Below the pieces are notes generated by a model. It saw only the letters and a list, made by a program, of their open reading frames with translations. It had not been told where the DNA came from and did no database searches. Below, piece after piece: positions 30,548 through 30,632 of a stretch of 44,004 nucleotides of DNA. The DNA is from Escherichia coli (lineage in GTDB: Bacteria; Pseudomonadota; Gammaproteobacteria; Enterobacterales; Enterobacteriaceae): NCBI RefSeq assembly GCF_003334765.1, contig NZ_QOWT01000033.1; one strand, given 5' to 3'. The position numbers and the translations under genes were made by a program. The stretch's first letter is position 1. Every line of letters begins with the position of its first letter.

Positions 30548-30555
30548 TGGCAATA

Positions 30556-30582
30556 CGTGGGGCAGGAGTGTCCTGCTCCACG
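30556..30582 (+). other. stable stem-loop in the oppA-oppB intergenic region
   Basis: About 12-bp GC-rich stem (CGTGGGGCAGGA / TCCTGCTCCACG) with a 3-nt loop, 9 nt after the oppA stop; a T run lies about 8 nt further downstream. Confidence 0.6.
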
Positions 30583-30632
30583 GTGTCTGATTTTTATCGC
30601 ATTACAGAAGGCACAGGCCAGAAGGTAGGGCA

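Follow-up and report, generated by a model that had tools for sequence, protein, structure and literature searches.

A structurally conserved hairpin between oppA and oppB that may protect the 3' end of an oppA-only mRNA in Escherichia coli and its relatives

The spacer between oppA and oppB in the 44,004-nt stretch of Escherichia coli DNA analysed here (hereafter, the window) carries a 12-bp hairpin, P1, that by comparative evidence across Enterobacteriaceae is under selection for its structure, and we consider, with moderate confidence, that P1 acts as an exonuclease barrier that gives an oppA-only mRNA a fixed, protected 3' end once Rho-dependent termination has taken place in oppB, possibly together with RNase E cleavage. 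The hairpin itself is probably not an efficient terminator. P1 is a new, individually uncharacterised example of a well-known class (that is, not a new design), and our search of the open-access literature found no paper treating a characterised oppA-oppB hairpin in E. coli or Salmonella; a Dps paper that mentions 'oppA-oppB' proved irrelevant to the hairpin. Hiles et al., who described the Salmonella opp sequence in 1987, reportedly studied how expression differs between the genes of the operon.

A 351-nt probe around the hairpin matches many complete E. coli genomes at 100% identity, with oppA and oppB as the annotated neighbours. In the MG1655 record, oppA (b1243) occupies 1301182-1302813 and oppB starts at 1302899, and MG1655 coordinates are obtained by adding 1272266 to the window position (Table 1). 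The spacer of 85 nt opens with UGGCAAUA, and 8 nt separate the oppA stop from the stem, whose first base is thus the ninth nucleotide past the stop codon. P1 consists of a 5' arm CGUGGGGCAGGA, the loop GUG and a 3' arm UCCUGCUCCACG, forming 12 unbroken base pairs, one G.U pair included; it is followed by GUGUCUGA (30583-30590), a run of five U (30591-30595) and AUCGCAUUACAGAAGGCACAGGCCAGAAGGUAGGGCA, after which comes the oppB AUG. Folded alone, P1 reaches -21.0 kcal/mol as against -7.6 +/- 2.2 for dinucleotide shuffles (z = -6.08), none of the 200 shuffles being equally stable, and the 101-nt region around it also folds more stably than shuffles (z = -3.1). The original prediction of a GC-rich hairpin of roughly 12 bp beginning 9 nt after the oppA stop therefore stands, although the range that it gave, 30548-30632, is the whole intergenic region in which the hairpin lies and not the hairpin only.

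Table 1. Coordinates of features in and around the oppA-oppB spacer (window numbering unless stated)
Feature	Position	Strand	Remarks
oppA stop codon (TAA)	30545-30547	+	oppA CDS about 28916-30547 by alignment to MG1655 b1243
UGGCAA block	30548-30553	+	directly past stop; 99-100% identical in 79 Enterobacteriaceae sequences
Helix P0 (predicted)	UGGC 30548-30551 / GCCA 30617-30620	+	RNAalifold
P1 extension (predicted alternative)	GGCA 30549-30552 / UGUC 30584-30587	+	fold
Hairpin P1	30556-30582	+	5' arm 30556-30567, loop 30568-30570, 3' arm 30571-30582
GUGUCU block	30583-30588	+	abuts P1 stem; identical in 75 of 79 sequences
Helix P2 (predicted)	GUGUCU 30583-30588 / AGGCAC 30609-30614	+	RNAalifold, independently
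Term-seq oppA 3' end	30584 (MG1655 1302850)	+	stem +2
Term-seq oppA 3' end	30586 (MG1655 1302852)	+	stem +4
Term-seq oppA 3' end	30590 (MG1655 1302856)	+	stem +8, the A of CUGA preceding U5
GA/UUUUU, single-stranded U-rich stretch	30589-30595	+	match to RNase E motif RN/WUU (slash, cut); predicted cut exactly after 30590
oppB Shine-Dalgarno (GAAGG)	30621-30625	+	in conserved 3' part of spacer (30609-30625)
oppB CDS	30633-31553	+	ATG at 30633
Canonical operon-end terminator after oppF	34510-34533	+	AAGGGCUGAC-AGUU-GUCAGCCCUU, directly into UUUUCAC

The comparative set was assembled by an OppB scan with one genome per species, which gave 80 loci, nearly all from Enterobacteriaceae, whose oppA-oppB spacers were extracted; counts given over 79 sequences refer to the window together with 78 Enterobacteriaceae loci. 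The shortest spacer measures 82 nt and the longest 233 nt, leaving out one Erwiniaceae locus (L059) with a mis-extracted spacer. Across the 79 sequences, a stable hairpin begins 8-9 nt past the stop in 77 and 10-11 nt past it in the other two, with a median energy of -20.9 kcal/mol (range, -14.8 to -47.5). In the two Erwiniaceae loci the spacer sequence is unrelated, yet here too GC-rich hairpins lie immediately past the stop. In a MAFFT alignment of 34 distinct short spacers, compensatory double changes (for example, U-A/C-G, A-U/G-C and G-C/A-U) occur at 9 of the 12 P1 pairs. Of the cells at all 23 tested pairs, 92.8% are paired; shifting the partner by 1-3 columns lowers this to 38-49%, the observed level of covariation is reached in 0 of 500 shuffles, and RNAalifold independently finds the same P1 helix. 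By these comparisons, P1 is under selection for its structure. Correction of quasi-palindromes at the DNA level could also maintain the complementarity of the arms; the fixed position of P1 across genera nonetheless argues for a function.

Two further patterns of variation are seen around the hairpin. The loop and apical stem of P1 differ among close Escherichia (GUG, UGCUU, UGUAU, GGAA and GAG among the window loop, 30568-30570, and loci L002-L006) while the flanks of P1 are identical, so that the apex is a local hypervariable spot in an otherwise fixed spacer. Upstream, the last 12 residues of OppA (window 30512-30547, compared with loci L002-L081) occur in distinct versions: NTYTRNMYIVKH in Escherichia and in Klebsiella michiganensis and Klebsiella grimontii, with near-variants in Pseudocitrobacter, and NIYVKNLYIIKH or similar in most other genera. 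This distribution is at odds with genus relationships and, as far as sequence comparison goes, suggests recombination at the oppA 3' end.

P1 occurs once in the window (in a search allowing up to 3 mismatches), and a query comprising the 91-nt intergenic sequence (that is, not the 27-nt hairpin alone) was found in 5423 of 5426 complete E. coli genomes, at a median of one place per genome, with 4254 records at least 99% identical. We therefore rejected the idea that P1 is a REP element or another dispersed repeat. A terminator on the minus strand was likewise discarded: the reverse strand contains a mismatch and folds less stably (-17.1 kcal/mol), lacks a T-rich tail and faces no convergent gene. 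A search of the whole window against Rfam at gathering thresholds gave no match in the opp region and found only an RtT RNA and a tRNA elsewhere; these lie next to each other on the minus strand at 16293-16555 (137.5 bits for RtT) and are unrelated to the hairpin.

Published transcript data from MG1655 place RNA 3' ends at the base of P1. In Supplementary file 1 of Adams et al. 2021 (PMC7815308), Term-seq gives one 'primary' oppA 3' end per condition sheet; for the three sheets (LB OD 0.4, LB OD 2.0 and M63, as assigned from the order in the caption), the ends fall 8, 2 and 4 nt past the stem, respectively (Table 1), and carry no U tail. Such ragged ends hugging the stem are the pattern expected of trimming. 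Supplementary file 2 of the same study lists a Rho termination region with its best position at 1303199 (window 30933), ~300 nt into oppB, where DirectRNA-seq coverage upstream/downstream is 532/303 without bicyclomycin (BCM) and 691/644 with it (Rho score 1.64, p = 4e-8); the score is modest and comes from 800-nt windows, so that the event is not localised. Coverage thus steps down by ~1.8-fold (<2-fold) across the oppA end and early oppB, and most of this step is gone under bicyclomycin. The pile-up of ends and the drop in coverage are the opposite of the uniform oppA-oppB coverage and the hairpin free of 3' ends that the original prediction had named as its refutation, and they support its reading of P1 as a partial terminator or mRNA-stabilising element; of these two alternatives, a stabilising 3'-end element is the more likely, and a site at which RNA polymerase terminates the less likely, as no U tract adjoins the stem and the coverage step is Rho-sensitive. 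The supplement of a SMRT-Cappable-seq study has no opp entry.

The arrangement agrees with a rule described by Dar and Sorek (2018, NAR; PMC6061677), according to which Rho-dependent transcripts end right after stable stem-loops that lack a U-rich tail, the stems guarding against PNPase or RNase II and the rut sites lying just downstream. P1 is a stable stem that is not followed by a U-rich tail and has steady-state 3' ends a few nucleotides past it, read-through increases when Rho is inhibited, and a rut-like region in which C exceeds G extends from about 30660 to 30940 in early oppB, with a GC skew that is negative but modest (down to -0.135). This combination of hairpin, Rho-sensitive drop and downstream C>G region lends support to the exonuclease-barrier reading. 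Unlike the protective stem-loops of that study, P1 lies inside an operon, between cistrons, where read-through is needed for expression of oppBCDF. Rho termination inside oppB is also known from Vibrio cholerae, where the small RNA OppZ lowers oppBCDF and spares oppA of the same operon (Hoyos 2020, PMC7398697). The Vibrio trigger is cut from the oppF 3' UTR, which in E. coli is limited to 7 nt and the terminator and has no evident pairing partner around the start of oppB, and an E. coli equivalent of OppZ was accordingly rejected.

The main alternatives differ in what would generate the 3' ends. P1 could be a leaky intrinsic (that is, Rho-independent) terminator, at which a fraction of the polymerases would release the RNA 7-9 nt downstream, the ends at +2 and +4 arising by later nibbling. 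The stem is GC-rich and 12 bp long, five U occupy positions +9 to +13 (in Citrobacter, U7 follows a 6-nt spacer), and the main support for this proposal is that the LB OD 0.4 end at stem +8 is the exact release site expected of an intrinsic terminator. There is also a precedent between a binding-protein gene and permease genes, namely gltI-gltJ (Miyakoshi 2015, PMC4474525), where a partial stop past the gene for an ABC binding protein, conserved in enterobacteria, yields the gltI mRNA and the Hfq-bound small RNA SroC; that element, however, is a canonical terminator with a U tail, whereas no U tail adjoins P1, which is not known to give rise to a small RNA. In fact, as the original prediction held, no T run directly adjoins the stem: GUGUCUGA intervenes, with 3 U in its 8 nt and none at the first position, and the U run begins only at the ninth nucleotide. 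A scan for consensus terminators, requiring a T-rich tail 0-2 nt from the stem, accordingly called the operon-end terminator after oppF and not P1, which has the GC-rich stem-loop of an intrinsic terminator but lacks the U-rich tract within 0-2 nt of the stem. Across species, the near-invariant feature past the stem is GUGUCU rather than a U run; the Enterobacter and Lelliottia versions have GUGUCUAACCAACG after the stem without any U run, and several genera have the hairpin but not the U run. Because the U tract is non-adjacent, and absent in Enterobacter and Lelliottia, the conserved feature is the hairpin and not a terminator tail. Furthermore, oppABCDF survived a filter by which Dar and Sorek (2018, PLoS Genet; PMC5927463) removed operons that are known for substantial Rho termination or that contain a stem-loop and U tract internally, and the step in coverage responds to bicyclomycin. 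We thus regard the leaky terminator as unlikely; the failing U tract and the Rho-sensitive step make P1 more probably a stop for exonucleases than a site of polymerase termination. A further alternative dispenses with termination altogether and invokes differential decay of the malE-malF type, in which RNase E would cut the full oppABCDF mRNA in the spacer (for example, at GA/UUUUU), the oppBCDF part with its 5'-monophosphate would decay fast and the hairpin would keep oppA. This is the classical model for binding-protein genes of ABC operons, and the malE-malF stabiliser (a REP; Newbury et al. 1987, as described in PMC5927463) resembles P1 in lying between the gene for a binding protein, as first cistron, and permease genes, and in placing a hairpin at the 3' end of the upstream segment, with an excess of binding protein expected; P1 differs in being single-copy and not a dispersed repeat. 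The end at +8 falls exactly on the predicted RN/WUU cut, and in Salmonella, TIER-seq places 15 RNase E sites within a stretch of 346 nt preceding oppB, many more than in neighbouring UTRs. Against this, the RNWUU match is not conserved, only 23 of 79 sequences having one no more than 20 nt from the stem, and bicyclomycin removes most of the step, which pure processing would not predict. Moreover, oppABCDF is among the 390 operons analysed (S2) and, by the decay tables (S3-S7), absent from the 47 operons with measured differential decay (PMC5927463), so that any stabilising effect on steady-state oppA mRNA may be small during exponential growth. Decay without termination therefore seems to us distinctly improbable as the source of the ends.

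It is also conceivable, and not exclusive of the other explanations, that P1 forms part of a larger conserved structure (a three-way junction or an extended P1) with the main task of controlling oppB translation or Rho access, for instance by serving as the target of a protein or small RNA or by bringing the oppA stop beside the oppB Shine-Dalgarno. The blocks that flank P1 hint at further helices or a binding site: UGGCAA and GUGUCU are near-invariant, and AGGCAC and GCCAGAAGG are about 90-100% identical across the 79 sequences, compared with 69% identity and only 2-8% invariance at flanking synonymous sites (the third positions of the 60-100 nearest codons in oppA and oppB). RNAalifold combines P0, P1 and P2 into a three-way junction that would set the oppA stop beside the oppB Shine-Dalgarno, while a fold of the RNA ending at +8 has the GGCA/UGUC pairing instead, which lengthens P1. 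All of the variation in spacer length (82 to 233 nt) lies within the P1 apex or the P2 loop, and the sole natural variants in GUGUCU/AGGCAC, U.G to U-A in Siccibacter and U.G to C-G in Franconibacter, are both compatible with P2. However, the columns of P0 and P2 are invariant in the 34-sequence alignment, so that covariation speaks neither for nor against them; P2 alone is about as stable as its shuffles (z = -0.5); the ensemble probabilities are low and inconsistent between species (medians of 0.23 for P0, 0.33 for P2 and 0.13 for the P1 extension); and the Shine-Dalgarno of oppB is free in every predicted fold. On balance we think it very improbable that P1 acts mainly through such an element. 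The bolder version, in which the spacer would be a multi-helix switch or binding platform coupling the end of oppA translation to oppB initiation or Rho loading and thereby actively setting the OppA:OppBCDF ratio, would likewise be a quite improbable model, and we treat the conserved blocks beyond the hairpin as a lead and not a finding.

Several related loci and neighbouring regions show structures of their own. In three Citrobacter loci (L041, L052 and L053), an insert of ~110 nt in the P2 loop extends the spacer to 232-233 nt and leaves the conserved blocks intact; it contains ...CCAGGAGCTTAC..AAGTAAGTGAC.GG.GTGAGCGAG...GAAGTATGACGGGTATA and resembles an ERIC/IRU enterobacterial repeat. Downstream of P1, the spacers of Siccibacter (L009 and L030) and Franconibacter (L013) have a second hairpin, GGAGCC...GGCUCC, directly followed by UUUUU, which from its sequence resembles a canonical terminator. 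After oppF, the terminator hairpin is symmetric, preceded by the A-rich stretch AAAAACAAU and followed by a short run of U, and the scan called it on the minus strand; it is probably bidirectional and common to the convergent gene downstream. On the other side of the operon, the ychE-oppA spacer (28179-28915; 737 nt) lacks the IS5U element that is present in MG1655 (1299499-1300693), and in the long leader of oppA the 3' ends classed as 'orphan' by Adams 2021 (PMC7815308) map to MG1655 1300918 and 1300921 (window about 28652-28655). In the Salmonella TIER-seq supplement, the 346-nt interval with the 15 RNase E sites is entered as the 'oppB 5' UTR' (SL1344 1796340-1796685), which implies a transcription start ~225 nt inside the oppA 3' end (window about 30323). 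Our promoter scan made no call at the E. coli equivalent near 30323, the only candidates being weak -10-like hexamers (CATTAT and TATAAG, 30311-30319). If this start is real, P1 would also lie within the 5' UTR of an oppBCDF transcript.

Returning to the exonuclease-barrier reading, we envision that RNA polymerase mostly passes P1 into oppB and that a fraction of the transcripts would then lose their downstream part, mainly through Rho-dependent termination early in the less protected oppB. The coding region of oppB is presumably translated less than that of oppA, which fits Rho termination there. Cleavage by RNase E in the U-rich stretch just past P1 possibly contributes. PNPase or RNase II would then shorten the RNA until 2-8 nt remain beyond the stem, and the result would be more oppA than oppBCDF message, the former probably also longer-lived, which would help periplasmic OppA to outnumber the membrane complex. 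The trimming, the nucleases named and the size of the effect of the hairpin on the protein ratio are inferences. The RNA step of less than 2-fold in the DirectRNA-seq data cannot alone account for a large OppA excess, and differences in translation efficiency probably contribute to it.

It is textbook logic that the binding-protein gene stands first in its operon and that selective stabilisation or leaky termination raises its expression above that of the other genes, and P1 leaves current understanding unchallenged. Its practical value is modest: the data support annotating the end of an oppA-only transcript at window positions 30584-30590 (MG1655 1302850-1302856). As a well-conserved, covariation-supported intercistronic hairpin that would protect a 3' end alongside Rho-dependent polarity, P1 may help to explain how one promoter can give more OppA than OppBCDF in E. 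coli and its relatives.
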